Assembly (NCBI GenBank): GCA_003151815.1
Contig: PLYN01000012.1
Location: 183-64,182, forward strand
DNA from: Bacteroidota bacterium
Lineage (GTDB): Bacteria > Bacteroidota > Bacteroidia > 2-12-FULL-35-15
Direction: 5' to 3'
Length of the DNA: 64,000 nt
In this document: positions 11,798 to 60,621 of the stretch, piece by piece
How the letters are laid out: each line of letters starts with the position of its first letter
How positions within the stretch are numbered: position 1 is the first letter of the stretch
Notes under the pieces: generated by a model
What the model was told of the DNA's origin: nothing
Databases searched by the model: none
What the model saw: the letters and a program-made list of their open reading frames with translations, nothing else
Program-made: the position numbers and the translations under genes

Positions 11798-11814
11798 ATT
11801 GTAAACAAGCCACG

Positions 11815-41134: not shown

Positions 41135-41146
41135 ATTCTATATTTT

Positions 41147-41180: not shown

Positions 41181-41183
41181 CAT

Positions 41184-41219: not shown

Positions 41220-41245
41220 AGATTTAAAATTTTTTAAATAACATT

Positions 41246-41740: not shown

Positions 41741-41818
41741 TTTTATTTTAGTATTGAGATTTGAGATATGAGTATTGAGAATCTCACATCTCACATCTCA
41801 TATCTGAAAATCTAATTT

Positions 41819-42814
41819 TTAATATTCTTTATCTAATTTATATTTTGCTAAATTCATTCCAAAGGTTAAGCCTTTGTTAGCAACTAGGTCTTCTAATTCA
41901 ATTAAAGATTTTTTACCGAAATTGCGGAATTTTAAAAGATCATGTTTAGCAAATGAAACCAGATCAGCCAAAGTATCAACATCAGCAGCTTTTAAGCAAT
42001 TTAAAGCGCGCACCGATAGATCCATATCTACTAATTTTGTTTTCAATAATTGACGCATGTGTAACGATGATTCGTCAAATTCTTCAGTAGCCATTTTTTC
42101 TTCAATATCCAATGTGATACGCTCGTCAGAGAATAACATGAAATGGTGGATAAGAATTTTAGCAGCTTCTGTTAATGCTTCTTTCGGATGAATTGAACCA
42201 TCGGTAACAATATTTAAGATCAATTTTTCGTAATCTGTTTTTTGTTCAACACGAAAATTTTCAATTGTATAATTTACATTTTTGATCGGAGTGTAAATAG
42301 AATCGATTGGAATTAAACCAAAACTTGCATTAGCAGATTTGTTCTCTTCAGCAGGAACGTATCCGCGACCTTTATCAATGGTTAGTTCCATTTTCAATTT
42401 TACATTCGGCTCCATGTTACAGATAACAAGATCTGAATTTAACACTTGGAATCCTGAAGTAAATTTACCAATATCACCTGCAGTTAATTGAGTTTTACCC
42501 GTAACCGTTACAGTTACTTTTTCAAAATCAATGCTGTCAATTTGCTTTTTAAAACGAACTTGTTTTAAGTTTAAGATTATTTCAGTAACATCTTCTGTAA
42601 CACCTTTAAGGGTGGAAAACTCATGGTCTACACCTTCAATCTTCATAGTAGTAACTGCGTGACCTTCCAGAGACGATAACAAAATTCTTCTTAAAGCATT
42701 ACCCACGGTGATGCCGTAGCCTGGCTCTAATGGACGAAACTCGAATACTCCTTCAGTTTCGTTAGATTGTATCATGATAACCTTATCTGGTTTTTGAAAA
42801 GCTAAAATTGCCAT
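41819..42814 (-). CDS. rpoA: RNA polymerase alpha subunit
   Basis: [25 protein letters not shown] and RNFGKKS. Confidence 0.99.
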
Positions 42815-42872
42815 TGTGTATATAGTTTAGTTATTTATTTTATTTTTTTGCCTATTCGCTATTATCAATTCT

Positions 42873-43478
42873 CTATTTAGAGTATAATTCGACAATTAGT
42901 TGCTCTTTAATATTTTCTGGAATCTGAACTCTTTCAGGGATCGCAATAAACTTACCTGTCATAGTTGATTTATCAAAATCCATCCAAGGAAAACTGTTAG
43001 CAACACTTGCAACATTATTGCTTATTACTTCTAATGTTTTTGAACGCTCACGAACCGCAACAGTATCGCCTGGTTTTAAAATATAAGAAGCAATATTTAC
43101 AACACTTCCATTTACCGTTATGTGACGGTGTCCAACCAATTGGCGTGCACCACTGCGTGTAGGAGATATACCCATACGGTAAACAACATTATCTAAACGT
43201 GATTCGATAAGTTGCAACAATACTTCACCTGTAACACCATGAGCCGTTTGAGCCATAGTATATATTTTGGCAAACTGACGTTCCAAAATACCATAAGTAT
43301 ATTTTGCTTTTTGTTTTTCTTTTAACTGAACAGCGTATTCGGATTGCTTAGAACGTTTTTTAGACAAACCATGCATTCCCGGAGGATAATTCTTTTTTTC
43401 TAATGCCTTATCAGGTCCGAAAATAGGTTCTTTAAATTTTCTTGCAATTCTTGATTTGGGGCCAATATATCTTGCCAT
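42873..43478 (-). CDS. rpsD: 30S ribosomal protein S4
   Basis: MARYIGP, QLKEKQK and [10 protein letters not shown]. Confidence 0.99.
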
Positions 43479-43589
43479 TTTTTTATTTTTTGTTGTTTGT
43501 TAATCTACTCTTTATTGTTAATAGTCTTTTTGACTTTTAACTTATTATCTAAATCTTCTGACTTTTACTTAAGCCTTTTTGACCTTATA

Positions 43590-44000
43590 TTATACTCTTC
43601 TGCGTTTTGGAGGACGGCAACCGTTGTGAGGGATTGGTGTGATATCCATGATTTCAGTAACTTCAATACCTGCACCTGAAAGGGTACGGATAGCAGATTC
43701 ACGTCCGGCGCCAGGTCCTTTTACAAACACTTTCACTTTTCTCAATCCTGCATCGTGAGCAACTTTAGCACAATCTTGCGCAGCCAATTGAGCAGCGTAA
43801 GGTGTGTTCTTTTTAGAACCACGGAAACCCATTTTACCAGCACTTGACCAAGAGATCACTTGACCGGTCATGTTGGTTAATGAAATGATAATGTTATTAA
43901 ATGTAGCACTAATATGAGCTTCCCCAATTGCATCTACTTTTACAACTCTTTTTTTTGCCGCAGCTTTAACTGCTGTGCCTTGTTGATTTTGTTTGGCCAT
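43590..44000 (-). CDS. rpsK: 30S ribosomal protein S11
   Basis: [19 protein letters not shown] and [12 protein letters not shown]. Confidence 0.99.
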
Positions 44001-44046
44001 TATTTATTTAATTGATCGCTAACTGCAACGTTAACCTGTTTTTTTA

Positions 44047-44424
44047 CTATTTAGTTACTTTTTTCTTATTCGCAACAGTTTTGCGTTTACCTTTTCTGGT
44101 ACGAGCATTATTTTTTGTTGTTTGGCCACGCACAGGTAATCCAACACGGTGACGAATACCTCTGTATGAACCAATATCCATTAAACGTTTAATGTTTAAT
44201 TGAATTTCCGAACGTAAAGAACCTTCTAATTTATACTTATCATTAAGAATAGTACGTATAGCGGTTAATTGATCATCGTTCCAATCCTGAACTTTTACAT
44301 TCCAATCAATACCGGCTTCGGTTAATACTTTTTGAGCAGAACTACGACCTATTCCGTAAATGTAAGTTAAGCCAATTTCTCCTCTTTTGTTGTTTGGTAA
44401 ATCAATACCCGCAATTCTTGCCAT
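44047..44424 (-). CDS. rpsM: 30S ribosomal protein S13
   Basis: [10 protein letters not shown] and [14 protein letters not shown]. Confidence 0.99.
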
Positions 44425-44537
44425 TTTATTATTTAGTTTAAAGTTTATTAGTTTAAAGTTTGAAAGTCTTAAGTTTTAAAAGCTGCCTGATATTCGCAAA
44501 CTTTAAACTTTGAACTTTTCAACTTTGAACTTTAATA

Positions 44538-44654
44538 TTACCCTTGTCTTTGTTTGAACTTAGGATTTTTTTTGTTGATAACATACAAAACACCGTTTCT
44601 GCGAACAATTTTGCAGTCAACACTTCTCTTTTTAATTGCTGTTCTAACTTTCAT
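44538..44654 (-). CDS. rpmJ: 50S ribosomal protein L36 (Zn-free type)
   Basis: Below the ORF cutoff. Manual translation gives [38 protein letters not shown]. Confidence 0.97.
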
Positions 44655-44666
44655 TTTACTGCTTTT

Positions 44667-44885
44667 TTATTTGTAACGATACGTAATTCTTCCTTTTGTT
44701 AAATCGTATGGCGACATTTCAATTTTCACTTTATCGCCCGTTAATATTTTTATATAATGCATTCGCATTTTTCCGGAAATATGGGCCGTAATCACGTGTC
44801 CGTTTTCAAGCTCAACACGAAACATTGCATTCGACAAAGCTTCAAGAATAGTTCCGTCTTGCTCAATTGACGCTTGTTTTGCCAT
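44667..44885 (-). CDS. infA: Translation initiation factor IF-1
   Basis: [14 protein letters not shown] and [14 protein letters not shown]. Confidence 0.99.
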
Positions 44886-44939
44886 ATTTTTTTACAATTC
44901 TAATACCTAACTCTAAATAATTTAGGATTTAGGATTTTT

Positions 44940-45728
44940 TTATTTTTTAACTTTTAATACTTCTTCTATATCTTCAAAACTAGATAATATATCCGCTTTG
45001 TCTTTCCCAATCGCTATTGTATGCTCAAAGTGCGCTGAAACTAGATTGTCAGCTGTACGTATCGTCCATCCGTCATTCTCTTGTATAATTGCTTTCTTAC
45101 CTAAATTAACCATTGGTTCAATTGCAATTACCAAACCTTCCTGAAGTTTTAATCCCGATCCTTTTTTACCATAATTAGGTACTTCCGGAGCTTCGTGAAG
45201 ATTTTGTCCTATTCCGTGTCCAACCAATTCGCGAACAATAGAATAACCATTTTTTTCAGCATGGGCTTGTACAGCTTCACTCACATCCCCTAAACGATTG
45301 CCAACAACAGCCTTTTCAATTGCTTTATAAAGGCTCTCTTTAGTAACTTTTAAAAGATCTAAAACTTCCAGTTTTACTTCGCCAACGGCAAAAGTATAAG
45401 CCGAATCTCCAAAGAACTTATTTTTTACAACCCCACAATCAACGGAAATAATATCACCTTCTTTTAATTCGTATTTCCCAGGTATTCCATGAACAACTTG
45501 TGAATTTACAGAAATACATAAAGTATTCGGGAAGCCGCTATATCCCTTAAAAGCAGGTATAGCATTGTTATCTTTGATAAACTCTTCTGCAATTTTATCT
45601 AATGATAAAGTTGTAATTCCAGGTTTGATCAATTTTGCAACCTCAGCTAACGTTTTTCCAACAAGTAAAGAACTAACTCTTATTAACTCAATCTCCTCTT
45701 TTGTCTTATAAAACAAGTCTTTTGCCAC
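44940..45728 (-). CDS. map: Methionine aminopeptidase type I
   Basis: CISVN..VVHGIP, VDCG, GHGIG, AIEPM and SAHFEHT. Confidence 0.98.
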   Translation of the reverse strand: MAKDLFYKTKEEIELIRVSSLLVGKTLAEVAKLIKPGITTLSLDKIAEEFIKDNNAIPAFKGYSGFPNTLCISVNSQVVHGIPGKYELKEGDIISVDCGVVKNKFFGDSAYTFAVGEVKLEVLDLLKVTKESLYKAIEKAVVGNRLGDVSEAVQAHAEKNGYSIVRELVGHGIGQNLHEAPEVPNYGKKGSGLKLQEGLVIAIEPMVNLGKKAIIQENDGWTIRTADNLVSAHFEHTIAIGKDKADILSSFEDIEEVLKVKK

Positions 45729-45776
45729 AATATTAAACCTTTTTGATAACGAATTATCCGATATCTTAATTTTTAT

Positions 45777-47117
45777 TTACGCATTTGTCATACTCATAGA
45801 AGAACGACCTTTGATTCTTCCACTTTGCATTAATCCATCATAATGACGCATCAACAAATGACTTTCTATTTGTTGCAAAGTATCTAATACTACACCTACC
45901 AAAATTAATAATGACGTTCCACCATAAAATTGAGCAAATTCAGGACTAATATTAATTTTAACAGCAAATGCAGGTAAAATAGCTATAAAAGCAAGAAAAA
46001 CAGAACCCGGCAATGTTATTCTCGACATGATCGTATCAATGAATTCAGCAGTTTTTTTACCAGGTATTATTCCTGGTACAAAACCTCCATTACGTTTCAT
46101 ATCCTCTGCCATTTGGTTTGGATTAACTGTAATAGCAGTATAAAAATAGGTGAATACAATAATTAAAAGGGCAAACACTAAATTATACCAAAAACCATAA
46201 TGATTTGAAAATGTCCTAACAAAGCCTGATAATGCTTCCGACTCTGAGAAACCTGCAATTGTTAATGGAATAAACATAATTGCCTGTGCAAAAATAATAG
46301 GCATAACACCTGCAGCATTCACTTTTAAAGGGATATATTGACGAACACCGCCGGTTTGTTTATTGCCAACGATTTTTTTTGCGAATTGAACAGGTATTTT
46401 TCGAGTTCCTTGTACCAATAAAATTGTTCCCATAATTACCAATAAAAGCAAAACAAGTTCTATTAATAACATGATCAAACCGCCACCATCACCACCTAAG
46501 CGCGAACCGAATTCCGAAACAAATGCAAAGGGTAAACGAGCGATAATACCTATCATGATGATGATGGATATACCATTTCCAATACCTTTATCAGTGATTT
46601 TTTCTCCTAACCACATTACAAACATAGTTCCTGTGATCAATATTAATACGGATTGTATGTACCAAAACGTACTTGGATCTGTAACAACACCAACCTTATT
46701 TGTAATTTGTGATGCAATATATCCTGGAGCTTGCAACATAGTAATTGCAACTGTTAAAAAACGTGTAATCTGATTGATTTTTTTTCTACCACTTTCTCCC
46801 GACATTTGTAACTTGCGGAAATACGGTAAGGCCATTCCCAATAATTGAACAACGATAGACGCAGAAATATAAGGCATAATACCTAAACCAAAAATGGAAG
46901 CACGAGAAAATGCGCCGCCTGCAAAAATATTTATCAATCCTACAATTCCTTCATTGGCTGATTTATTTGCAGCAGAAAGGATCTCTGAATTAACTCCAGG
47001 AAGAACAACATAAGAACCTAAACGGTAAACCAAAACAAACCCGAGTGTATTTAAAATACGAACTCGTAAGTCGTCAATTTTCCAAATGTTTCTTAATGTA
47101 TTGATTAAGTTTTTCAT
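45777..47117 (-). CDS. secY: Preprotein translocase subunit SecY
   Basis: IFGLGIMPYISASI, GIGNGIS, PLKVNAAGVMPIIFA and GGTSLLI. Confidence 0.99.
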   Translation of the reverse strand: MKNLINTLRNIWKIDDLRVRILNTLGFVLVYRLGSYVVLPGVNSEILSAANKSANEGIVGLINIFAGGAFSRASIFGLGIMPYISASIVVQLLGMALPYFRKLQMSGESGRKKINQITRFLTVAITMLQAPGYIASQITNKVGVVTDPSTFWYIQSVLILITGTMFVMWLGEKITDKGIGNGISIIIMIGIIARLPFAFVSEFGSRLGGDGGGLIMLLIELVLLLLVIMGTILLVQGTRKIPVQFAKKIVGNKQTGGVRQYIPLKVNAAGVMPIIFAQAIMFIPLTIAGFSESEALSGFVRTFSNHYGFWYNLVFALLIIVFTYFYTAITVNPNQMAEDMKRNGGFVPGIIPGKKTAEFIDTIMSRITLPGSVFLAFIAILPAFAVKINISPEFAQFYGGTSLLILVGVVLDTLQQIESHLLMRHYDGLMQSGRIKGRSSMSMTNA

Positions 47118-47141
47118 AAAACAATTTTATTGCTTAAGATA

Positions 47142-47600
47142 TTATGCTTTTTCAATAGATACTGCAGCTCCACCTTGGGCTTCAATTGCATTTTTAGCTG
47201 TTGCCGAAAATGCATGCACTTTTATTTCAACTTTAGATTTCAACTCTCCACGACCAAGCACTTTTACTTTGTCGTTTTTATGAGCTAAGCCTTTTGAAAT
47301 TAAGAACGCTATATCAATTGTATTCACTTTATTGTCATCAACTAATGATTGAATGACATCTAGATTAATCCCGCGATATTCAACACGGTTAATATTTTTA
47401 AATCCAAATTTAGGAACACGTCTTTGCAATGGCATTTGACCGCCTTCAAAACCTCTTTTAGCAGAATAACCTGAACGAGATTGAGCTCCTTTATGTCCTT
47501 TTGTTGAAGTTCCGCCTTTACCTGACCCTTGACCTCTACCTAAACGCTTTTTAGCATTTTTAACCGAACCTTCTGCTGGTGTTAATTTACTTAAATTCAT
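47142..47600 (-). CDS. rplO: 50S ribosomal protein L15
   Basis: RLGRGQGSG and FEGGQMPLQRR. Confidence 0.99.
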   Translation of the reverse strand: MNLSKLTPAEGSVKNAKKRLGRGQGSGKGGTSTKGHKGAQSRSGYSAKRGFEGGQMPLQRRVPKFGFKNINRVEYRGINLDVIQSLVDDNKVNTIDIAFLISKGLAHKNDKVKVLGRGELKSKVEIKVHAFSATAKNAIEAQGGAAVSIEKA

Positions 47601-47694
47601 TACTTTATTTTTTATTTGATGATTTGATGACTTAGTGATTTAATGATTTATCCTTAAAAATCTCTAAACCTCCAATTCAATAATTCTCTATTCT

Positions 47695-47871
47695 TTATTT
47701 TACTACTGTAACCAAATGGGCTACTTTGTTAACCATTCCAATAATTTGAGGAGTTGCTTCCTTTTCTATTGTTTGATTTAATTTGATAAAGCCTAGAGCA
47801 CGCAACGTACGTTTTTGGCGCTCAGGACGACCAATACCACTTTTTATTTGTTTGATTTTAATTGTTGCCAT
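47695..47871 (-). CDS. rpmD: 50S ribosomal protein L30
   Basis: MATIKIKQIKSGIGRP. Start corrected to 47871. Confidence 0.97.
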   Translation of the reverse strand: MATIKIKQIKSGIGRPERQKRTLRALGFIKLNQTIEKEATPQIIGMVNKVAHLVTVVK

Positions 47872-47959
47872 TTTATTTTTTAGTTTAAAGTTTTTAAGTT
47901 TAAAGTTCAATTGTTGGTCTTAACTTTCCAGATTGAACTTTCTAACTTTGAACTTATTT

Positions 47960-48478
47960 TTATCCATTAAATACTTTTTCCATTGAAATACCACGGTGTT
48001 GAGCAACAGTTGCTGCATCACGCATTTTCATCAAAGCATCCATAGTAGCTTTTACTACGTTATGAGGGTTTGATGACCCTTTTGATTTCGCCAAAACATC
48101 AGTTACGCCAACGCTTTCCAACACAGCACGCATCGCACCACCGGCAATAACACCGGTACCGTGAGCAGCAGGTTTTAAGAAAACCAATGAACCGCTGAAT
48201 TTACCGTATTGTTCGTGAGGAACAGTCCCTTTTACGATTGCTACTTTTATCAAATTCTTTTTAGCATCATCAATTCCTTTGGTGATAGCATCAGTAACCT
48301 CTTTAGCTTTACCTAAACCGTAACCAACTATACCTTTTTCATTTCCAACAACCACAATAGCTGAAAATGTAAAATTTCTACCACCTTTGGTAACCTTAGT
48401 TACACGTTGAATGCTAACAAGCTTATCTTTCAATTCGATGTCGCTTGATTTTACTCTTTTAATGTTTGCGTTTGACAT
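47960..48478 (-). CDS. rpsE: 30S ribosomal protein S5
   Basis: [18 protein letters not shown] and GTGVIAGG. Confidence 0.99.
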
Positions 48479-48539
48479 TTTCTTTATTTTTAGATTTAGT
48501 CCCGAAATTTTATTGGGATTAATTTTTAAATTTTAATTA

Positions 48540-48896
48540 TTAAAATTTTAGTCCTGCCTCACGAGCGCCTTCAGCTAATGATTTCACGCGACCATGATAT
48601 AAATAACCATTTCTATCAAATTTAACAGCAGAAATACCGGCTTTAGTAGCTTTTTCAGCAATTGCCTTACCTACTAATTTGGCTTGATCTATTTTATTGC
48701 CTTTTACATCTGCAATACCTTTATCGGTAGATGATGCTGCAACAAGTGTTTTACCTGTAACATCGTCAATAAGTTGAACATAAATCCCTTTATTACTTCT
48801 AAAAACAGATAGTCTAGGACTATTCGCTTCTCCGTGTACTACCTTACGGATACGTTGCTTAATTCTGTTTCTTCTAAATTCTTTTGTGACTGCCAT
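48540..48896 (-). CDS. rplR: 50S ribosomal protein L18
   Basis: [10 protein letters not shown] and [12 protein letters not shown]. Confidence 0.99.
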
Positions 48897-48952
48897 TTTT
48901 TTAAACTTATTTCTATCGCGGTTTGAGGCGATAATTGTGAACTCTTTACTTA

Positions 48953-49507
48953 TTATTTACCAGCTGATTTACCAGCTTTTCTTCTTAATATCTCACCCGC
49001 AAACTTTATACCTTTACCTTTGTATGGTTCAGGTTTACGTAATGAACGGATTTTAGCAGAAACTGCACCAATCAACTGTTTATCTGCACACTCCAAAATA
49101 ATTGTAGGGTTTTTACCTTTTTCAGTAGTAGTGGTTACTTTAATTTCAGGAGGTAAATCAAAAGAAACGTTGTGAGAAAAACCTAGGGTTAATTCTAACA
49201 ATTGTCCTTTGTTTGCAGCACGAAAACCTACACCAACAAGCTCTTGTTCTGTTCTGTATCCTTCAGTCACTCCTTTAACCATGGAAGCGACTAACGCACG
49301 ATATAAACCATGCATTGCTTTGTGGCGTTTTTGTTCTGTTGCGCGAACGAAAATTAATTTACCCTCTTCATTTTTGAGCGTAATAGCAGCATCCATTTTT
49401 TGAGTTAAAGTACCTTTTGCACCTTTAACAGTCACTACATTTTTATCCGAAACATTAATCTCTACTCCTTTTGGAAGTGTGATTGGTAATTTACCTATTC
49501 TTGACAT
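48953..49507 (-). CDS. rplF: 50S ribosomal protein L6
   Basis: MSRIGKLPI and [11 protein letters not shown]. Confidence 0.99.
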
Positions 49508-49591
49508 TTTATATAAGTTTTAAATTCTAAATTCTAAATCCTAAATTCCAAAATTGTTTTACTACAACTTGAAATTTATTATTTCGAATTT

Positions 49592-49987
49592 CTAATATAC
49601 ATAACACAATACTTCTCCACCCACCTTTTGAGACTTTGCTTCTTTGTCGGTCATTACACCTTTTGAAGTAGATATGATGGCAATACCCAAACCATTTAAA
49701 ACGCGAGGCAGTTTTTGTGATCCTGCATATTGCCTTAAACCGGGAGTACTGATTCTTGTTAAGTTTTTAATTGCCGATTGTTTACTTACCGGATGGTATT
49801 TCAAAGCAATTTTAATTGCGCCTTGAACTGTTGAATCTTCAAATTTGTAGCTTAAGATATAGCCTTTTTCAAATAGAATTTTTGTGATTTCCTTTTTTAA
49901 ATTAGAAGAAGGAATTTCTACGATTCTGTGGTTTGCTTTAATAGCATTTCTCACTCTTGTGAGGTAATCTGCAATGGTATCTGTCAT
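49592..49987 (-). CDS. rpsH: 30S ribosomal protein S8
   Basis: DTIADYLTRVRN, STPGLRQY and GGEVLCYVY. Confidence 0.99.
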   Translation of the reverse strand: MTDTIADYLTRVRNAIKANHRIVEIPSSNLKKEITKILFEKGYILSYKFEDSTVQGAIKIALKYHPVSKQSAIKNLTRISTPGLRQYAGSQKLPRVLNGLGIAIISTSKGVMTDKEAKSQKVGGEVLCYVY

Positions 49988-50065
49988 TTTATTTGGTTTT
50001 ATATGTTATCCCGCACGCAGGATAATTATACATTAATACTCTTTTTTAATTCTAACTGATAAATA

Positions 50066-50335
50066 CTACCAGCTAGATTTTGTGATTCCGGGAATCAAAC
50101 CGTCCAATGCCATTTCACGGAATGAATTACGTGAAATACCAAACTGACGCATGTAACCTCTCGGACGTCCTGTTAATTTACAACGATTTCGTTGGCGAGT
50201 CGGAGACGATGCTCTTGGAAGTTTTTGTAATCCAACAGAATCCCCTGCTGCTTTTAAAGCAGCTCTTCTATCAGCGTATAGGTCAGCAAGTCTTTTACGT
50301 TTAACTTCTCTTGCTTTCATTGATTCTTTTGCCAT
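50066..50335 (-). CDS. rpsN: 30S ribosomal protein S14 (Zn-free type)
   Basis: [10 protein letters not shown] and [12 protein letters not shown]. Confidence 0.99.
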
Positions 50336-50338
50336 CGA

Positions 50339-50899
50339 CTATATTTTTTTTTGATTTTTAAATGGTAATCCAAATTCACTTAACAAAGCTAATGCCTCAC
50401 CATCACTATTAGTAGTGGTAACAAAAGTAATATCCATACCCATGATCTTGGTAACTTTATCAATATCTATTTCCGGGAAAATAATTTGTTCTGTTACACC
50501 TAAGGTATAATTTCCACTTCCGTCGAATCCTTTATCGTTGATTCCTCTGAAATCACGAATCCGCGGCAAAGCTACAGAAATTAATCGATCCAAAAACTCA
50601 TACATCTTATCTCCACGTAAAGTTACCCTTACGCCAATCGGAACTCCTTTACGAAGTTTGAAATTAGAAATATCTTTCTTTGAAATAGTTGCAACTGCCT
50701 TTTGACCGCTGATAGTAGTCATTTCCTTGATTGCACCTTCTATCAATTTTTTATCAGATACAGCATCTCCAACACCTTGATTAAGGCAGATCTTCTGTAA
50801 TTTTGGCACTTGCATTGAACTGCTGTAACCAAATTTTGTTTGCAAAGCAGGCACTACGTCTACTTTATACTTGTCTTTTAATCGTGGTGAATAAGTCAT
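50339..50899 (-). CDS. rplE: 50S ribosomal protein L5
   Basis: [12 protein letters not shown] and LPRIRDFRG. Confidence 0.99.
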
Positions 50900-51225
50900 T
50901 ATTTAATTACCTCCCCTGTTTTTTTTGAGTAACGTACTAGTTTGTTGCTTTTATCATCTAATTTACGACCAACACGAGTAGCTTTGCCGGTGCCTGGTTC
51001 GATTAACATTAGATTAGAAATATGAACTGAAGCTTCTTGCTTTACAATTCCGCCTTGTGGGTTTTTCGCGTTTGGTTTGGTATGTTTTGAAACCAAGTTA
51101 ACACCTTCAACAATAGCGCGACCTTTTACTCTATCTATTGAAAGAATAATGCCTACCTGACTTTTTGAATCTCCGGCAATGACCTGAACTGAATCGCCTT
51201 TTTTGATATGTAATTTTGTTTGCAT
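50899..51225 (-). CDS. rplX: 50S ribosomal protein L24
   Basis: [12 protein letters not shown] and EASVHISN. Confidence 0.99.
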
Positions 51226-51303
51226 TGTTATTATCTTTTTTCTTTTTGGCTAAAGCCAAATCATTCATTTAATTTTATTCCACGACCTAAACGTCATGGC
51301 TAT

Positions 51304-51672
51304 TTACAAAACTTCTGGAGCGAGTGAAATTATTTTCATAAATTGTTTATCTCTTAATTCACGGGCAACCGGTCCAAAAATACGTGTTCCTCTTAATTCA
51401 TCCGCGGCATTTAATAATACTACCGCATTATCATCAAAACGAATGTAAGAGCCATCTGCACGTCTAACTTCTTTTTTTGTTCTAACAACTACAGCTTTTG
51501 ATACAGCACCTTTTTTTATGTTACCTGATGGTAAGGCATGTTTAACTGTTACCACTACTTTATCTCCAATAGAAGCGTATCGTTTTTTTGTTCCGCCAAG
51601 CACGCGTATAACAAGCACTTCTTTTGCACCACTGTTATCTGCAACTAATAATCTTGATTCCTGTTGTACCAT
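51304..51672 (-). CDS. rplN: 50S ribosomal protein L14
   Basis: VADNSGAK and [11 protein letters not shown]. Confidence 0.99.
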
Positions 51673-51766
51673 TTTTTATATTAGATTTAAGATTTGAGAC
51701 TTGAGATTTGAGAATGAGAACTTTTTTATCTCCTATCTCAATACTAACATCTCACATCTATTTTTA

Positions 51767-52024
51767 TTATTTCACTTTTTCAACCACTTCAACTAATCTC
51801 CAGCATTTGTTTTTGCTGATAGGACGAGTTTCCATAATTTTAACCGTATCGCCTATGCTGCAAGTATTTGCTTCATCATGAGCAACAAACTTAGTCGTTT
51901 TTTTAAGGAATTTCCCGTATTTAGGGTGCTTCACTTTACGTTCTACTGCTACAACAATCGACTTATCCATTTTGTTACTGGTTACTAAGCCAACTTTTTC
52001 TTTTCTTAATTTTCTGTCTTCCAT
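51767..52024 (-). CDS. rpsQ: 30S ribosomal protein S17
   Basis: [16 protein letters not shown] and ETRPISK. Confidence 0.99.
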
Positions 52025-52095
52025 TTTATTTAGATTTTAGACTTTAGATTTTAGATTTTAGATTGAGAAAAAATCTCACCTCTAATATCTCATAT

Positions 52096-52305
52096 CTATG
52101 ATCTATTTTTTGCTTCTGCTATTTCTCTAGTGCGAAGTTCGGTTTGCAATCTTGCTACTGTTTTTCTGCTGAAAGTAATTTTCAACGGATTTTCAATAGG
52201 CGATACTGCGTGATTCAACTTTAATTTAGCTAAAGTGCCTTTTTCTTCTTTCACACGATCACGAAGATCGCTGGTTGAAAGTTGTTTTATGTCTGCTTGT
52301 TTCAT
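52096..52305 (-). CDS. rpmC: 50S ribosomal protein L29
   Basis: Position between rplP and rpsQ; ENPL....RKTVARLQT. Confidence 0.97.
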   Translation of the reverse strand: MKQADIKQLSTSDLRDRVKEEKGTLAKLKLNHAVSPIENPLKITFSRKTVARLQTELRTREIAEAKNRS

Positions 52306-52359
52306 TTATTTTATTGAATTACCCCTTCGACTCCGCTCAGGGTGACAAATTATTATTTA

Positions 52360-52791
52360 TTATGCTACTACTTCAGAAACGTAATCTCTTTTTACAACAA
52401 ACTTAGTTGTCAAAGGTAATTTTTGTGCAGCTAAGCGTAATGCTTCTTTCGCTACTTCAACAGGAACACCTTCTGCTTCAAAAATAACACGTCCCGGTTT
52501 CACAACAGCTACCCAATATTCCGGAGCACCTTTACCTTTACCCATACGAACCTCTGCAGGTTTAGATGTGATAGGCTTATCAGGGAAAATACGAATCCAT
52601 ATTTGTCCTTCACGTTTCATGAAACGTGTTACCGCAACTCTGGCTGCTTCAATTTGACGGGCTGTTACCCAGCATCCTTCAGTTGCCTTGAGTCCAAATG
52701 AACCGAATGAAAGTTGGTCGCCACGCTTCGCGTTGCCTTTCATTTTCATTTTGTGCATTTTTCTATACTTGGTTCTTTTAGGCTGTAACAT
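52360..52791 (-). CDS. rplP: 50S ribosomal protein L16
   Basis: [11 protein letters not shown] and EVRMGKGKG. Confidence 0.99.
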
Positions 52792-52835
52792 TATGTTTTA
52801 TTTATTAAATATCAATTAAACCGTTTTATTATCTA

Positions 52836-53609
52836 TTAAGATTTTCTAAAATCTCTTTTGTCTTTACGTGGTGCTCCTTTTGGAAATTTTGGTGCTCCAC
52901 TTCCACCAAATGAAGGCGCTCCTTTTTTATCTTTCGAACCTGCACCAGCTGCTGCTGCTCCAACATTCGGAGATAAATCACGTTTACCATAAATTTCGCC
53001 TTTGCATATCCAAACTTTTACACCGATACGGCCGTAAGTTGTATGTGCTTCACCTAATGCGTAATCAATATCAGCACGTAATGTATGCAATGGAGTACGA
53101 CCTTCTTTATAACCTTCCACACGTGCCATTTCAGCACCAGCCAAACGACCAGAACATTTTACTTTAATACCTTCAGCACCCATACGCATCGTTGACGCTA
53201 CAGCCATTTTCACAGCTCTACGAAAAGAGATACGACCTTCAATCTGACGAGCAATGCTATCTGCAACTAAACGAGCATCTAACTCCGGACGTTTAATTTC
53301 AAATATATTGATTTGAATATCCTTGCTGGTTATTTTTTTCAACTCTTCTTTAATTTTATCAACCTCTTGACCGCCTTTACCAATAATAATTCCAGGACGG
53401 GAAGTATTAATTGTAACAGTAATAATTTTCACTGTTCTTTCGATCACAATTTTAGAAATGCTAGCTTTCGCTAAACGTGCTTTCAAATATGTTCTGATCT
53501 TATGATCTTCAACTAATTTGTCAGAAAAATTTTTCCCACCATACCAGTTTGAATCCCATCCTTTAATGATGCCTAAACGTAAGCCTATTGGATTTGCTTT
53601 TTGTCCCAT
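52836..53609 (-). CDS. rpsC: 30S ribosomal protein S3
   Basis: [13 protein letters not shown] and [10 protein letters not shown]. Confidence 0.99.
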
Positions 53610-53622
53610 TGAAAATTATATA

Positions 53623-54057
53623 TTATTTAGTTTCTTCTTTTACTACTTTTTCCTTTTTTTCTTTTTCAACTTTGCTATCCACAACAATTGTTACGTGGTT
53701 AGAACGTTTTCTGATTCTGTTCGCACGACCTTGTGGAGCAGTTCTTAAACGTTTCATTTGAAGAGCGCTGTCAACAAAGATTTCTTTAACAACTAAGTTG
53801 CTGTCTTCAGGACGTTGTCCTGTTTTTGCTTCGTAGTTAGAGATCGCTGAAGTAAGCAATTTTTCTAATCTTCCAGATGCTTCTTTCGGATTGAATTTTA
53901 AAATATTCAATGCCATATATACTTCTTTACCTCTGATAAGATCAGCAAGTAATCTCATTTTACGAGGAGACGTAGGACAATTTTTCAATACAGCAAAATA
54001 TCTGCTTTTGTTTGCCTCTTTTTTTGCGTCCGCTGCGGTTTGTTTTCTAACACCCAT
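53623..54057 (-). CDS. rplV: 50S ribosomal protein L22
   Basis: [14 protein letters not shown] and [14 protein letters not shown]. Start corrected to MGVRK at 54057. Confidence 0.98.
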
Positions 54058-54138
54058 TTTATTTGAATTTTGAGATTTGAGATTTAAGATTTGAGATTTT
54101 TTATCTCTTGTCTGATATCTCAACTCTAATATCTATAT

Positions 54139-54417
54139 TTATTTTTTAGCCTTGTCTTTATTTCCTGAGTGACCTCTGAACGTTCTGGTTGGAGAAAACT
54201 CACCGAATTTATGACCTACCATATTTTCTGTAATGTATACAGGAATAAATTTTTTACCGTTGTGAACCGCTACTGTTAATCCTACGAATTCAGGAGAAAC
54301 CATTGATCTGCGTGACCATGTTTTAATTACTGTTTTTTTTCCTGTTGCTTGTAAGTCGAGTAATTTTTTCTCCAACTTCCAGTCGATAAAAGGACCTTTT
54401 TTTAATGATCTTGACAT
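54139..54417 (-). CDS. rpsS: 30S ribosomal protein S19
   Basis: [10 protein letters not shown] and MVGHKFGEF. Confidence 0.99.
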
Positions 54418-54474
54418 TTCTTATTGTTTTTTAGTTGTGAATCCCGGATGTCCGCGACCATTAAACTTATTTAA

Positions 54475-55299
54475 TTATTTTTTTCTACTTGCGATAATGT
54501 ATTTGTTAGAAGCTTTCTTAGGGTAACGTGTTTTGTACCCTTTAGAAGGAATTCCTTTGCGTGAGCGAGGGTGACCACCAGATGCTCTACCTTCACCACC
54601 ACCCATTGGATGATCCACAGGATTCATAACAACCGGACGAGTTCTCGGTCTGCGACCTTGCCAACGAGAACGACCTGCTTTACCACTTATCTCTAAATTA
54701 TGATCAGGATTTGAAACGGTACCAATAGTAGCCATACAAGTAATTAATATCATACGAGTTTCGCCTGAAGGCATTTTGATAACAGCGTATTTACCATCTC
54801 TTGCATTTAATTGTGCTGATGAACCAGCGCTACGTGCCATAACAGCACCTTGCCCCGGACGTAATTCAATGTTGTGAATTGCGGTTCCCAATGGAATGTC
54901 AGCTAAAAATAATGTATTTCCTATTTCTGGAGTTGCGTCTTTACCTGAAAGAATTTTTTGCCCTACTTGTAATCCGTTTGGAGCAACGATATAACGTTTT
55001 TCACCATCCGTATAAACCACTAAAGCAATACGTGCAGTACGATTTGGATCGTACTCAATTGTTTTAACCGTTGCAGGAACACCGGTTTTTTCTCTTTTAA
55101 AATCAATGATACGGTATTGTTGCTTGTGACCACCGCCGATATAGCGCATTGTCATTTTACCTGTGTTATCACGTCCACCCGATTTTTTTACCGGCACCAA
55201 TAAACTTTTTTCAGGTTTACCGTGAGTAATATCGTCGTTATCACTAACTAATTTAAAACGTTGCCCTGGGGTTAAGGGTCTGAATTTCTTTAAAGCCAT
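54475..55299 (-). CDS. rplB: 50S ribosomal protein L2
   Basis: [11 protein letters not shown] and [13 protein letters not shown]. Confidence 0.99.
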
Positions 55300-55433
55300 C
55301 TCAGTTTATTTTATTATCACCCCGACTGCTCGGGGTATAGTTACTTTTATTCTTGCGTCCCATAATCGGGATTCTAATCTTATAAACACAGATTGGAAAT
55401 CTATGTTACTTCACAGTTAAAAACCTATATTAC

Positions 55434-55724
55434 TTAAATGCTTGCGTAAAAATCAATCGTTTCGCCAGCTTTAAGAGTAATGATAGCTCTCTTATGTTTG
55501 TTAACTCTACCAATTGCAATTCCTTTAGTAGTGTTACGGGTTTTTACTTTACCAACATAATTTTGTGTGTTTACAGAATCAACTGTAACGCTGTACATTT
55601 TTTCAACAGCATTTTTTATTTGCACTTTGTTAGCATTACTATCTACCACAAAACCATAGCGATTAAATTTATCACCTTGGGATGTCATTTTTTCGGTTAT
55701 AACCGGTTTGTTTATGATGCTCAT
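55434..55724 (-). CDS. rplW: 50S ribosomal protein L23
   Basis: KPVITEK, ANKVQIK and KRAIITL. Confidence 0.99.
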   Translation of the reverse strand: MSIINKPVITEKMTSQGDKFNRYGFVVDSNANKVQIKNAVEKMYSVTVDSVNTQNYVGKVKTRNTTKGIAIGRVNKHKRAIITLKAGETIDFYASI

Positions 55725-55729
55725 TTTAT

Positions 55730-56359
55730 TTAATTGCTTAATAATTTTTCAATTTCTTTCACCGAACTCTCAACAAGTAAAAGATTATTTGCGTTCAAAA
55801 TATCGTAAGTGTTTAAATCCGAAGCAGTTACCACTTTTGCGTTGGTTAAATTTCGGGAGGACAAATATATGTTTTTATTTGATTCGCCCAACACTAATAA
55901 GGTTTTTTTATCTGAAAGCATTAAATTATTAATCAAATCAGCATATTTCTGTGTTTTAGGAGAATCGAAAATGAAATCTTCCAAAATAGTTATATTGCTG
56001 TCTTTTGCTTTATAAGTTAAAGCTGACATACGAGCCAAACGCTTTAATTTTTTGTTCAATTTAAACGAGTAGTCTCTGGGGCGCGGACCGAAAGCTCTAC
56101 CTCCACCAACTCTGGTAGGAGATTTGTCATTACCCACACGAGCACCACCAGTACCTTTTTGTTTCTTTATTTTTTTAGATGAACCACGTATTTCAGCTCT
56201 TTCTTTCGATTTGTGAGTTCCCTGACGTTTATTTGCTAAATGTTGTTTAACATCCAAATAAATGGCATGGTCATTTGGGTCGATGCCAAAGATCGCATCG
56301 TTTAGGCTTACTTTCTTTGAAGTAGCTTTACCGCTTATATTTAATACTGATACTTCCAT
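55730..56359 (-). CDS. rplD: 50S ribosomal protein L4
   Basis: [19 protein letters not shown] and FGPRPRDY. Start placed at MEVSVL. Confidence 0.99.
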
Positions 56360-56360
56360 T

Positions 56361-56978
56361 TTATTTTTCAATTGTAACGTATGAACCTTTTGCTCCTGCT
56401 ATTGAACCTTTAACGATAATAAGGTTTTTCTCAGCGATCACTTTTAATACTTCCAAGTTTTGGATCTTTACACTGTCTCCGCCCATTCTACCACCCATTC
56501 TCATTCCTTTGAATACGCGGGAAGGCCATGAAGAAGCTCCTAATGATCCTGGTGCACGAGCACGATCATGTTGACCGTGAGTACTTCCACCAACACCGGA
56601 AAATCCGTGACGCTTAACAACTCCTTGAAAACCTTTTCCTTTAGAAGTTCCTGCAACATCAATGAAATCACCTTCAGCGAATACTTCCACTGTAACAATT
56701 TCACCAAGAGTTTTCTCAGTATTGAATTTTTTGAATTCAACGATTTTACGTTTAGGAGTAGTAGCAGCTTTAGCAAAATGACCTTTCATCGCAGAAGAAG
56801 TATTTTTTTCTTTCTTCTCATCATACGCTAACTGAACTGAAACATATCCGTCTTTTTCTAAGGTTTTTACTTGCGTAACCACGCAAGGACCAGCTTCAAT
56901 AACTGTGCATGGTATATATTTACCATTGGCACTGAAGATACTGGTCATTCCAACTTTTTTACCTATTATTCCAGACAT
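56361..56978 (-). CDS. rplC: 50S ribosomal protein L3
   Basis: [15 protein letters not shown] and [10 protein letters not shown]. Confidence 0.99.
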
Positions 56979-57007
56979 TTTATTATTTATTATTTATTTA
57001 CTTTTTA

Positions 57008-57316
57008 TTATGATGCTTTGATTTCAACCTCTACTCCACTTGGTAATTCAAGTTTCATTAGTGCGTCAACTGTTTTTGAAGTTGAGTTATAAATGTCCAA
57101 CAATCTTTTGTAAGAACATAATTGAAATTGCTCACGTGCTTTTTTGTTAACGTGTGGTGAACGTAAAACGGTATATATTTTTTTGTGAGTTGGCAATGGA
57201 ATTGGTCCACTAACAACAGCACCCGTTAATTTCACAGTTTTAACAATTTTCTCAGCAGACTTGTCAACTAAGTTGAAGTCGTAAGATTTTAATTTGATTC
57301 TGATTTTTTGGCTCAT
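57008..57316 (-). CDS. rpsJ: 30S ribosomal protein S10
   Basis: [10 protein letters not shown] and [13 protein letters not shown]. Confidence 0.99.
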
Positions 57317-57344
57317 AGTTGTATATAAAGAACGTTGTTAATAA

Positions 57345-59465
57345 TTATACTTTTTCTGCTTTACCTTTTGCTTTTGCTATAACCTCATCAGAAGTATTTC
57401 TTGGTGCTTCTGCATAATGTGAAAATTCCATTGTAGATGTTGCACGTCCGGAAGTGATGGTACGCAATGTTGTCACATAACCGAACATTTCAGACAAAGG
57501 CACTTTTGCTTTGATAACCTGGGAACCGGCTCTTGTATCCATCCCTTCGATCATCCCTCTGCGTTTATTTAGATCGCCTACCACATCACCCATATTTTGC
57601 TCTGGAGTAAGAACTTCTACTTTCATAATTGGCTCTAATAATACCGGTTTTGCTTTTGGCAATGCTTCACGGAAAGCGGCACGTGCACAAATTTCAAAAG
57701 ACAATGCATCTGAATCGACGTTATGATATGAACCATCTAATAATCTTACTTTTAATGTATCTACAGGATAACCTGCCAATACACCATTTACCATTGCTGA
57801 TCTGAATCCTTTTTCAACAGCCGGAATAAATTCGCGAGGAATATTACCACCGGAAATTTCATTTACGAATTGTAAACCACCCGCTTTTGTTGTTGTATCG
57901 AAATCTGCATCAACAGGAGAAATAACAACTTGTATATCGGCAAACTTACCGCGACCACCGGATTGTTTTTTGTAAACTTCGCGGTGTTGAACAGTAGCAT
58001 TAATTGTTTCTTTGTATGAAACCTGAGGAGGACCTTGGTTCACCTCTACTTTAAATTCTCTTCTTAAACGATCAACAATGATCTCTAAGTGAAGCTCACC
58101 CATACCACTAATAATGGTTTGCCCACTTTCTTGATCCGTTTTAACACGAAAGGTTGGATCTTCTTCAGCTAATTTAGCTAAACCATTACCTAATCTGTCC
58201 AAGTCACCTTGAGTTTTAGGCTCAATAGCAACACCGATAACCGGCTCAGGGAAATTCATTGACTCAAGAACGATCGGATTTTTTTCATCACAAAGCGTAT
58301 CTCCTGTTTTAATATCTTTAAATCCAACAGCTGCTCCAATGTCACCTGCTTCAATAAAATCAATTGAATTTTGTTTGTTAGCATGCATTTGGAAGATACG
58401 TGAAATACGTTCTTTACTGCCGCTACGGGTATTATACACATAAGAACCTGCATCTAAACGACCCGCATACACACGGAAGAAACACAAACGACCAACAAAA
58501 GGGTCTGTTGCAATTTTAAATGCTAAAGCAGTAAATGGTTCTTTGACGTCAGGTTTACGAGAAATTTCTTCGCCGGTATCAGGATGAGTACCTTTTGTGC
58601 TTTCTTTATCCATTGGACTTGGCATCAATTCCATAACCAAGTCTAACATAGTTTGTACACCTTTGTTTTTGAAGGCTGATCCGCAAACCATAGGAACAAT
58701 TTTATTAGCGATACACGCCTTTCGAAGAGCAGTTAAAATTTCCAATTCAGTAATTGAATTTGGATCTTCGAAAAATTTCTCCATGATAGCATCATCGAAC
58801 TCAGAGATAGCTTCCAACAATTTTTCTCTCCACTCTTTTGCTTCATCCAACATATCTGCAGGAATAGGAACTTCTTTAAACGTCATTCCTTGATCATGCT
58901 CATTCCATTCAATTCCTCTAAAATTAATTAAATCAACAACGCCGGTAAATGTTTCTTCAGCACCAATCGGCAATTGTAAAGGAATCGGATTTCCACCCAA
59001 TACTTCTTTTACTTGCGCAACCACTTTTAAGAAGTCGGCACCTGAACGATCCATTTTATTTACGAAACCGATACGGGTTACGTTATAGTTATTTGCCAAT
59101 CTCCAGTTTGTTTCTGATTGAGGCTCAACACCGTCAACCGCAGAAAACAAAAATACCAAACCATCAAGAATACGCAATGAACGGTTTACCTCAACAGTAA
59201 AATCAACGTGTCCGGGAGTATCAATAATATTTACTTTGTATTGTTCTCCTTTGTATTTCCAGAAACAAGTAGTGGCAGCAGAAGTGATTGTTATACCACG
59301 CTCTTGCTCTTGTACCATCCAATCCATTGTAGCTGCACCATCATGTACTTCACCAATTTTGTGATTTACACCTGTGTAATAAAGAATACGCTCTGTACAG
59401 GTAGTTTTACCTGCATCGATGTGAGCTGCAATTCCAATGTTTCTCGTATATCTTAAATCTGCCAT
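57345..59465 (-). CDS. fusA: Elongation factor G
   Basis: [27 protein letters not shown] and GMGELHL. Confidence 0.99.
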
Positions 59466-59594
59466 TTTATTTCTATTTCGGATTGCGGATTGTTGATTTC
59501 GGATTATATGCCTAATCGTTTCCTTAAGCCATTATTTTTTTAAAATTCGCAATTGCAAATTCGCAATCCGCATTTATTGTAATCTTAATATTTA

Positions 59595-60062
59595 CTAGAA
59601 TCTGAAATGTGAAAATGCTTTGTTCGCTTCCGCCATTTTATGAACATCTTCTTTCTTCTTAAAAGCTGCACCTTCTTCTTTTGCTGCTGCGATTATCTCT
59701 CCCGCCAATTTACTGCTCATTGATTTTTCATTTCTCTTACGAGCATACAAGATCATCCATTTGATACCCATTGACGTTTTTCTCTCCGGACGAATTTCAC
59801 TTGGGATTTGAAAAGTAGCTCCACCAACTCTACGGCTACGAACCTCAACAGCAGGTGTGATATTACTCAATGCTTTTTTAAACATTTCAAGTCCGTCTTG
59901 TTCGGTTCTTTTTTGAATGATTTCTATCGCATCATAAAATACATCATATGATGTGCTTTTTTTACCATCGTACATCAAGTTGTTTACAAAACGTGTTACT
60001 AACACATCGTTAAACTTAGGGTCAGGTAAAAGAATTCTCTTTTTTGCTTTACTTTTTCTCAT
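59595..60062 (-). CDS. rpsG: 30S ribosomal protein S7
   Basis: RRVGGATFQ and [13 protein letters not shown]. Confidence 0.99.
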
Positions 60063-60132
60063 TGTGGCAACTAATTACGAATTTTAAACGAATTACGCCC
60101 CTCGACTCCGCTCGGGGTGACATTGATATTAT

Positions 60133-60546: not shown

Positions 60547-60613
60547 TTTTTCGTTATTAAATTTCTATCGTTTTTAAACTAAAATTAAATAAACCCCGTC
60601 TTTTTAGGGAGGG

Positions 60614-60621
60614 CAAAGGTA
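60614..60621 (-). promoter_or_regulatory. -7 promoter box of the str-S10 cluster
   Basis: Minus strand TACCTTTG, about 70 nt upstream of rpsL. Confidence 0.7.

Follow-up and report, generated by a model that had tools for sequence, protein, structure and literature searches.

Periodic hairpin elements in the intergenic spacers of a Bacteroidota ribosomal-protein supercluster

Hairpins and arrays built from short tandem units are already known: the short tandemly repeated repetitive (STRR) sequences of cyanobacteria can form hairpins (PMC2670836), heptamer arrays precede start codons in Beggiatoaceae (PMC4679880), and intervening sequences (IVS) of rRNA genes carry S23p open reading frames (ORFs) (PMC4990558). 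Here we describe hairpins with arms of tandem 7- or 8-nt units in the spacers of the rpsL-rplQ ribosomal-protein cluster of a Bacteroidota genome. The window is the whole stretch of 64,000 nucleotides that was analysed, contig C6 of a metagenome-assembled genome (MAG) of 2.53 Mb (76.6% complete, about 33% GC), and the part studied, 41741-60132, runs from the rpoA/rplQ spacer through the rpsL/rpsG spacer. At a probability of roughly 0.6, these spacers have been colonised by hairpin elements without genes that resemble IVS or STRR sequences, occur genome-wide and are mostly tolerated passengers.

The IVS of Coxiella burnetii consists of a terminal stem, three tandem GACAGAT heptamers and an S23p ORF, and RNase III cuts at the first repeat (PMC4990558). 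The 23S IVS with a PF05635 ORF, as in C. burnetii and Leptospira (PMC4990558), resemble the elements described here in their long inverted-repeat stem, in the tandem heptamers of their 5' part and in residing in the host transcript in the same orientation; moreover, one PF05635 cassette with arms of the same type as the most abundant hairpin family (F1, see below) is present in this genome. In contrast to the IVS, the copies described here lie in mRNA spacers and not in helix 45 or 25 of the 23S rRNA, those in the ribosomal cluster have no ORF, and RNase III excision, which is known for the IVS, would be a prediction here.

The cyanobacterial STRR heptamers, for example the hupS-hupL hairpin (PMC2670836), are likewise intergenic 7-bp tandem units that form hairpins between co-transcribed genes, and for that hairpin a part in stabilising the transcript or in coupling translation has been suggested, without tests (PMC2670836). 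However, they belong to filamentous cyanobacteria and have other unit sequences, whereas the units found here in Bacteroidota are AAAGTTY, TTAGTNR, GAGATNT, ATTTGAAA and GGAGAAWT, with several families per genome, a fixed polarity of a G-containing and a C-containing arm, and an association with PF05635. The TAACTGA heptamers of Beggiatoaceae, cyanobacteria and a few Bacteroidetes (PMC4679880) are also gene-oriented tandem arrays that are spread over the genome and end a few nucleotides before start codons, but they have a single fixed unit, are arranged as direct repeats only, with one inverted case among 170, and lack a partner with which a hairpin could form (PMC4679880). No description of heptamer hairpins that colonise Bacteroidota ribosomal operons or are tied to PF05635 was found in the searchable literature, and searches for the unit sequences themselves returned only unrelated primer matches.

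Periodic hairpins in the cluster and across the genome

Few parts of a bacterial genome are usually as compact and conserved as its ribosomal-protein operons. The cluster studied here lies on the minus strand and comprises 33 genes from rpsL (60546) to rplQ (41246), in the order rpsL, rpsG, fusA, rpsJ ... rpoA, rplQ, separated by 32 junctions; the starts of rplD, rplV, rpmD and rplQ were reset to the conserved ATG. Its spacers sum to 1,896 nt, and the sum ranges from 1,300 to 2,434 nt across twelve loci of the genus. For most other Bacteroidota the total is about 430-1,100 nt and the median spacer 5-25 nt, so that the expansion put forward in the original prediction is borne out. The nearest records are MAGs of uncultured freshwater 'Bacteroidetes bacterium', and the relatives used most for comparison have ribosomal-protein identities of 95% (L015), 93% (L003) and 90.5% (L016).

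All 32 spacers were folded on the mRNA strand and compared with 200 dinucleotide shuffles. The original prediction listed 12 junctions with 7/8-mer arms; ten of these have clear hairpins (z -2.2 to -5.0, 14-30 pairs, loops of about 5-50 nt), map/infA is marginal, and at rpsD/rpoA no hairpin is formed. Altogether, about 20 of the 32 junctions carry some hairpin, and nine spacers are shorter than 30 nt. The families are F1 (AAAGTTY/RAACTTT, 52 detected copies), F2 (TTAGTNR, 24), F3 (ATTTGAAA(ATGTGCT), 10), F4 (GAGATNT) and F5 (GGAGAAWT). In 81 of 95 copies a G-containing 5' arm is followed by a G-free complementary 3' arm, the opposite type being rare (map/infA, rpsH/rplF). The 12 junctions are as follows.

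41741-41818, minus strand: rpoA/rplQ spacer, F4 hairpin with GAGATNT / ANATCTC arms and 26 bp, followed by the leader AATACTAAAATAAAA (z -4.3).
42815-42872, minus strand: rpsD/rpoA spacer, a remnant (AATAGCGAATAGG ... AACTAAACTATA) with 2 pairs and no hairpin (z -0.7).
43479-43589, minus strand: rpsK/rpsD spacer, hairpin with the weakest periodicity of the ten, partly conserved with L015 (z -4.1).
44425-44537, minus strand: rpmJ/rpsM spacer, F1 hairpin (AAAGTTY / RAACTTT arms) of 30 bp, with additional C-type repeats toward the ATG (z -3.6).
44886-44939, minus strand: map/infA spacer, short periodic hairpin of 11 bp with the rare opposite polarity (AATCCTA first, TAGGATT-type second), conserved in L015 (z -1.2).
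47601-47694, minus strand: rpmD/rplO spacer, periodic hairpin with GGAGNTTT / AAATCAYY arms (z -2.7).
47872-47959, minus strand: rpsE/rpmD spacer, F1 hairpin (z -3.2).
49508-49591, minus strand: rpsH/rplF spacer, periodic hairpin of opposite polarity, with AAATTC.. / GAATTTA arms (z -4.3).
51673-51766, minus strand: rpsQ/rplN spacer, F4 hairpin (z -5.0).
52025-52095, minus strand: rpmC/rpsQ spacer, F4-like hairpin whose 3' side carries five AATCTAA repeats (z -2.2, periodicity 1.0).
54058-54138, minus strand: rpsS/rplV spacer, F4 hairpin (z -2.9), missing in most genus members (spacers of 24-41 nt).
59466-59594, minus strand: rpsG/fusA spacer, hairpin with GCGGATT / AATCCGM arms and a conserved loop (z -2.7).

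In the closest relative, L015, the rpsD/rpoA junction carries a full hairpin, and the spacer of the present genome looks like a decayed copy of such a hairpin. For rpmD/rplO, the alignment of the orthologues was too ambiguous to yield a usable consensus fold.

The periodic hairpins are not peculiar to the ribosomal operon. The genome contains 223 period-7 arrays compared with 23 in shuffled sequence; periods of 5, 10 and 11 showed no such excess. An inverted partner is present within 150 nt for about 200 intergenic arrays versus 12-23 in shuffled flanks. A uniform detector that combined Tandem Repeats Finder, a period-7/8 scan and a search for an inverted partner within 150 nt yielded 496 intergenic arrays versus 408 in coding DNA, which makes up 87% of the genome, and about 141 paired hairpins. 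The hairpins cover about 5% of the total intergenic DNA. Hairpins occupy 95 of 1,587 co-directional junctions (6.0%), 15 of 277 convergent (5.4%) and 10 of 271 divergent ones (3.7%).

Within one family the arms are near-identical across loci and match the family consensus. The loops (up to 116 nt, median 44) are mutually unrelated, the GCGGATT element being the exception: an all-against-all blast of 62 loops yielded only chance-level matches of 12-29 nt, and a decayed common sequence was rejected. The position between the genes is regular: at co-directional junctions, a median of 3 nt separates the stop codon from the 5' arm, and a median of 8 nt separates the 3' arm from the ATG. For the hairpins of the cluster, pairing ends 7-28 nt ahead of the ATG, in agreement with the earlier observation that the arms stop short of it. 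It should be noted that the G-arm-first polarity is unchanged by reverse complementation; it is identical on both strands and thus a property of the class that is uninformative on the direction of transcription, and its interpretation as a transcription-orientation bias was rejected.

The stems have a median of 24 arm-arm base pairs in 81 copies genome-wide, with at least 20 bp in 65 of the 81. The 10 nt past the 3' arm contain 50% A and 30% T, and ordinary leaders before all genes contain 47% A, so the A-rich tail is a normal leader. This composition also bears on the view that the hairpins act as terminators or attenuators of the intrinsic type and so split the transcription of the cluster. 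Stable stem-loops past stop codons would suit such a role, but the sequence downstream is A-rich and not U-rich, the genuine rplQ terminator has a different build (a GC-containing 14-bp stem followed by U7), and ten such elements within essential ribosomal operons would be hard to tolerate. The terminator view is thus extremely improbable, and it was rejected on account of the A-rich downstream sequence and the contrast with the rplQ terminator, which lies just outside the spacers:

41135-41245, minus strand: rplQ downstream region, intrinsic terminator (14-bp GC-containing stem plus U7) followed by a GC-rich REP-like hairpin (z -5.65).

This GC-rich REP-like hairpin (CCCCTCTCC...GGAGAGGGG) is found at both outer edges of the cluster, at 41150-41180 (past the rplQ terminator) and at 60915-60950 (upstream of rpsL).

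Further copies of the periodic hairpins occur elsewhere in the window:

15871-16009, strand not assigned, between two minus-strand genes: F1 hairpin with a loop of about 70 nt.
23697-23851, strand not assigned: F3 hairpin with AATTTGAAAAT(GTGGT) arms.

In addition, a solitary G-free F1 array (AACTTTAAACTAAAAAACTTTAAACTAAAAA) abuts an ATG at a divergent junction (27779-27810) and has no complementary upstream arm. Three heptamer arrays (AGAAGAC with about 10 copies, GAAGGGA and CAATCGT) lie at 62636-62807 within an ORF of 833 amino acids (60999-63500, plus strand), which represents either a heptamer element read through in frame or two genes fused by a stop-free spacer.

Turnover among relatives and the association with PF05635

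The comparison of the genus members indicates that hairpins are gained, lost, exchanged for other families and relocated between junctions. Even genomes whose ribosomal proteins are 95% identical differ, in that a site is empty (5-12 nt) in one and filled (66-86 nt) in the other. For example, the rplD/rplW spacer has 5 nt here versus 86 nt in L015, and the 12-nt infA/rpmJ spacer of this genome corresponds to 78-nt hairpins in L015 (F1) and L003 (F4). At rpmC/rpsQ, three genus genomes have 71-85 nt and the remainder 8-9 nt. The rpsE/rpmD spacer is filled in every genus member by differing families (F1, F3, an AGATTTT type or a GAGAAT type), and rpsQ/rplN contains an F4 hairpin here and a GCGGATT-family element in L015 and L003. 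The 129-nt rpsG/fusA element of the present genome aligns end to end, including the loop, with that rpsQ/rplN element of L015 and L003 (89/114 and 89/113 identical positions, 78%), nearly as well as the two rpsQ/rplN orthologues align with one another (93/116, 80%), and thus a whole element is found at different junctions in different species.

A side observation concerns the rpsH/rplF junction. In most genus members (L001, L002, L004-L006, L016) the spacer of 18-19 nt, TCTTTAGGAGGAAMAGANC, contains a Shine-Dalgarno-like AGGAGG 7-8 nt before the rplF ATG; here and in L015 the hairpin insert replaces this spacer and the AGGAGG is lost. A strong Shine-Dalgarno motif is unusual for Bacteroidota, rpsU being a known gene with such a motif in F. 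johnsoniae.

The spread has a local component. Neighbouring elements within 15 kb share the family in 24 of 81 pairs versus 13.6 expected (p<0.0005), and F4 is almost confined to the ribosomal cluster. The clearest case of local spread within one family lies outside the window, on contig C15 (104700-114650), where five hairpins in successive spacers within about 10 kb are all F2 (TTAGTNR). Beyond the genus, several MAGs of Chitinophagaceae, one of Daejeonella and one further Bacteroidia MAG show the same architecture and unit families in their ribosomal clusters; most other lineages lack them. F3 recurs in a Chitinophagaceae MAG, and F2 and F4 in Daejeonella.

These observations also bear on an explanation that dispenses with mobility: replication slippage could expand 7-8-nt units within AT-rich spacers and intrastrand template switching could symmetrise quasi-palindromes, so that the hairpins would grow in place as a mutational by-product. 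In accordance with this, the number of units differs between arms and between species, the arms co-vary, each arm fits its own partner slightly better than the arms of other copies (permutation p 0.01-0.04), and no target-site duplication or transposase was found. However, growth in place is difficult to align with 30-50 near-identical arm pairs of one family at unrelated loci, with the recurrence of unit families in the distant lineages mentioned above, with the whole element plus loop at different junctions, and with full 66-86-nt hairpins where the corresponding 5-12-nt spacers hold no seed repeat. This explanation is therefore regarded as improbable.

A candidate partner of the elements is PF05635, the 23S rRNA intervening-sequence protein, an Avd-like four-helix bundle. 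The sole PF05635 gene of the genome (C58:30543-30965) lies between an F1 G-arm and an F1 C-arm, with TAGTTTAAAGTTCAAA three nt past the upstream stop codon and ACTTTAAACTTTGAACTTTGAACTTTAAAA at the 3' end of the gene, and the encoded protein matches 2GSC, a solved pentamer of the S23p family. Copy numbers of PF05635 in 64 other Bacteroidota genomes range from 0 to 32, and 57 of these genomes have the gene. Inverted heptamer arms of the same polarity flank 24 of 31 PF05635 genes from other Bacteroidota (z>=4), the genes are co-oriented with their neighbours in 26 of 31 and 28 of 30 cases, and the flanking arms are more similar to the ribosomal-cluster spacers of the genome they come from than to those of other genomes (permutation p<0.0002). 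The correlation between PF05635 copy number and the number of ribosomal-cluster arrays is weak (Spearman 0.32, p 0.011), and none of the loops of the ribosomal-cluster hairpins contains a PF05635/S23p ORF. The 23S genes of two genus members have a normal length (2,879-2,883 nt) and no IVS, which suggests that in this genus the elements reside in mRNA spacers and not in rRNA; the present MAG contains no 23S gene.

Taken together, the comparisons show a class of hairpins with fast turnover, mobile or at least propagated by copying, tied to PF05635 cassettes and placed between the stop codon and the leader. One reverse transcriptase gene is present on contig C12; nothing linking it to the hairpins turned up, no dedicated search having been made.

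Another source of mobility would be the Y1 transposases of the type of the REP-associated tyrosine transposases (RAYTs), which would mobilise the hairpins as repetitive extragenic palindromic (REP) or REPIN elements. REP, BIME and REPIN elements are also abundant small extragenic palindromes that occur in families, are intergenic and form hairpins, and REP elements near a stop codon can affect mRNA stability and translation termination. Moreover, two PF01797 genes are present in the genome (C14:948-1400 and C34:60914-61414). However, REP-type elements are GC-rich palindromes of 20-40 nt with a fixed consensus and no periodic arrays, and each of the two Y1 genes is flanked by its own GC-rich REP family (GCCCTGAAAGGGC and GCTCCnnnGGAGC, respectively, the latter with about 50 genome matches) and has no periodic array nearby. 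RAYT mobilisation of the periodic hairpins is thus largely ruled out by PF01797 genes that lack heptamer arms, and only a very small probability is assigned to it. A copy of the REP of the second Y1 gene (GCTCCnnnGGAGC) is found in the window near 11775-11800.

Enrichment, expression and possible RNA function

The cluster is the densest stretch of 19.3 kb in the genome, with 14 arrays versus a genome mean of 3.8 and a maximum of 13 elsewhere; its density thus lies above the genome average and does not equal it, but the excess is modest. Per junction, hairpins occupy 5 of 30 in the cluster (16.7%) versus 89 of 1557 (5.7%, Fisher p 0.029), an enrichment of about threefold, and arrays occupy 11 of 30 (36.7%) versus 262 of 1557 (16.8%, Fisher p 0.008). 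One alternative in the original prediction, that the elements target highly transcribed DNA, failed as a general rule: with the codon adaptation index (CAI), trained on the cluster, as a proxy of expression, the hairpin frequency outside the cluster is flat over the quintiles (p 0.4-0.6). Other long co-directional gene runs showed no hairpin enrichment (4.1%) and are, if anything, poorer, and other array-dense regions contain ordinary genes. The excess in the cluster may reflect local spread within the transcript as much as the expression level. The other alternative, that the hairpins were co-opted to segment and stabilise the operon mRNA, would be plausible given stems with a median of 24 bp, RNase III in the other genus genomes sampled and the conserved, covarying rpoA/rplQ hairpin.

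The best candidate for such co-option is the rpoA/rplQ hairpin, which is orthologous in at least seven species. In the alignment of seven genus members, 92% of the cells are paired, versus 31-49% when the partners are slid, and the covariation is 0.294 versus 0.139 in shuffles, none of 500 shuffles being as high. This copy, at least, behaves as a maintained RNA structure and may have been co-opted.

Several points weigh against the view that the hairpins are mostly tolerated passengers. At rpoA/rplQ, double changes are found at five pairs, and sense-strand G-U pairs recur. Four junctions (rpoA/rplQ, rpsE/rpmD, rpsQ/rplN and rpsK/rpsD) are occupied in all genus members. There is one true polarity: the G-free array near the start codon exceeds the array near the stop codon in length in 51 cases, and the reverse holds in 22 (p 6e-4). 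The always-filled junctions, the compensatory changes at rpoA/rplQ and the 51:22 asymmetry fit selection for RNA function better than pure passengers. Propagation meets difficulties as well: no mobilising enzyme for the periodic hairpins was identified, PF05635 is not known to be an enzyme, and many genomes rich in PF05635 have no ribosomal-cluster arrays (for example, 32 copies and 0 arrays), so PF05635 is not sufficient. The arms are inverted; simple copying of whole elements in the manner of miniature inverted-repeat transposable elements (MITEs) does not sit easily with unrelated loops of 10-120 nt, and comparing filled with empty sites revealed no target-site duplication. Furthermore, RNase III was not detected in this 76.6%-complete MAG, while it is present in 18 of 18 other genus genomes sampled, and the folding, cleavage and expression effects of the hairpins are inferred.

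Some of these points are also the strength of an explanation in which the hairpins are adaptive intercistronic RNA devices. In bacteria unable to use Shine-Dalgarno pairing, each of them would link the downstream leader with the end of the preceding gene: the terminating ribosome would open the stem and free the 3' arm, which contains neither G nor AUG, resulting in translational coupling of the two genes. Alternatively, the stems would be points of processing or stability at which the long operon RNA is divided into protected segments. The geometry (stop codon, 3 nt, stem, 8 nt, ATG) would suit such a device, as would the longer G-free array proximal to the ATG, the four junctions that stay occupied despite family swaps, the rpoA/rplQ covariation with its sense-strand G-U pairs, and the enrichment in the ribosomal cluster, which is about threefold per junction and about fourfold over other long gene runs; both roles have been proposed, without tests, for the cyanobacterial STRR hupS/hupL hairpins (PMC2670836). 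Nevertheless, most junctions are polymorphic for presence and absence even at 95% ribosomal-protein identity, and the same operons in most other Bacteroidota run with spacers of 5-25 nt. Genome-wide, sense and antisense strands fold equally well (-29.5 versus -29.9 kcal/mol, 40:40), the sense strand has no surplus of G-U pairs (191 versus 232), convergent spacers are occupied at a similar frequency, no relation to the CAI exists, and the same arms flank the selfish-looking PF05635 cassette. Adaptive devices are therefore considered an unlikely explanation.

The periodic hairpins have to be distinguished from the short GC-rich hairpins, for which the original prediction of eight fits well: eight to ten other junctions have small hairpins of several unrelated kinds. 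They are found at rpsL/rpsG, rplW/rplB, rplB/rpsS, rplP/rpmC, rplN/rplX (two), rpsN/rpsH and rplF/rplR, with weaker ones at rplR/rpsE, rpsM/rpsK and secY/map.

48897-48952, minus strand: rplF/rplR spacer, small genus-conserved hairpin (TATCGSC..AAACCGMGATA; z -2.5).
49988-50065, minus strand: rpsN/rpsH spacer, genus-conserved hairpin TTATCCTGCGTGCGGGATAA ahead of rpsH; the spacer has 74-79 nt in all genus loci.
51226-51303, minus strand: rplN/rplX spacer, two small hairpins (CCATGACG..CGTGG and TTTGGCTTTAGCCAAA; z -4.2), in this genome only (18-21 nt in L015, L003 and L016).
52306-52359, minus strand: rplP/rpmC spacer, second copy of the tiny GC-rich repeat of the rpsL/rpsG type (CACCCTGAGCGGAGTCGAAGGGG).
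54418-54474, minus strand: rplB/rpsS spacer, small GC-rich hairpin with species-variable sequence inside conserved flanks (z -2.3).
55300-55433, minus strand: rplW/rplB spacer, genus-conserved hairpin ACCCCGAGCAGTCGGGGT adjoining rplB and further upstream hairpins specific to this genome (z -2.4).
60063-60132, minus strand: rpsL/rpsG spacer, copy of a dispersed GC-rich repeat that forms a tiny hairpin (CACCCCGAGCGGAGTCGAGGGG); L003 and L016 lack it here.

The tiny GC-rich repeat of rpsL/rpsG and rplP/rpmC has 7 copies in the genome, and relatives lack it at those junctions. The GC-rich hairpins are a separate mix of the tiny dispersed repeat (two copies), genome-specific inserts and several genus-conserved locus-specific structures. 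To the last group belong rpsN/rpsH, rplF/rplR, a part of rplW/rplB, and rplB/rpsS, as candidates for RNA structures tied to their locus. The conserved hairpins before rpsH (49988-50065), rplR (48897-48952) and rplB (55300-55345) are candidates for ribosomal-protein autoregulatory or processing structures. None of these three matched an Rfam family, and an Rfam covariance-model scan of 41000-61000 at E<=1 yielded no ribosomal-protein leader and, as its only match, a chance-level RalA match within the rplF coding sequence.

Proposed path and meaning

If the spacers were colonised by mostly tolerated elements, the gene-less hairpins would be relatives of the PF05635-carrying cassette with like arms. 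Bacteroidota initiate translation on unstructured leaders without Shine-Dalgarno pairing (PMC6847099), and because of this dependence insertions would survive only with the leader intact, that is, past the stop codon and ahead of the 8-25-nt A-rich leader, which would explain why each hairpin ends some way before the ATG. On the operon transcript, the hairpins would form AU-rich stems of about 20-28 bp with no U-run behind them, so that transcription would not be terminated. Stems of this length are long enough for RNase III, and they would probably be cut by it, by analogy with the rRNA intervening sequences, or be melted by the ribosome that terminates 3 nt upstream. A few old copies, most clearly that at rpoA/rplQ, would have been kept as RNA structures.

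A bolder version is more doubtful and is given as a tentative speculation. The hairpins might belong to an undescribed class of transcript-resident mobile elements, with a full form that carries the gene for the PF05635 four-helix-bundle protein, whose pentamer would recognise the arms. Such elements might spread along their own operon transcript, with the heavily transcribed ribosomal supercluster as preferred habitat, and some copies might have been domesticated as coupling gates opened by the ribosome. Preferential spread along the resident transcript would explain the clustering of families and the confinement of F4 to the cluster.

In these bacteria, the spacers of a ribosomal operon change faster than their surroundings, because hairpins arrive, are swapped and move. 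If the stems are cut, or melted by ribosomes, they would alter the processing and translation of an essential 19-kb operon RNA in a phylum that initiates without Shine-Dalgarno pairing, and the 32 junctions, with their natural filled and empty states among close relatives, offer a setting in which the effect of a hairpin could be tested. The tie to PF05635 provides a protein candidate for two old puzzles, the heptamer repeats of the STRR type and the ORFs of the rRNA intervening sequences. Should the transcript-resident mobile elements prove real, they would link rRNA intervening sequences, S23p proteins and bacterial heptamer repeats.

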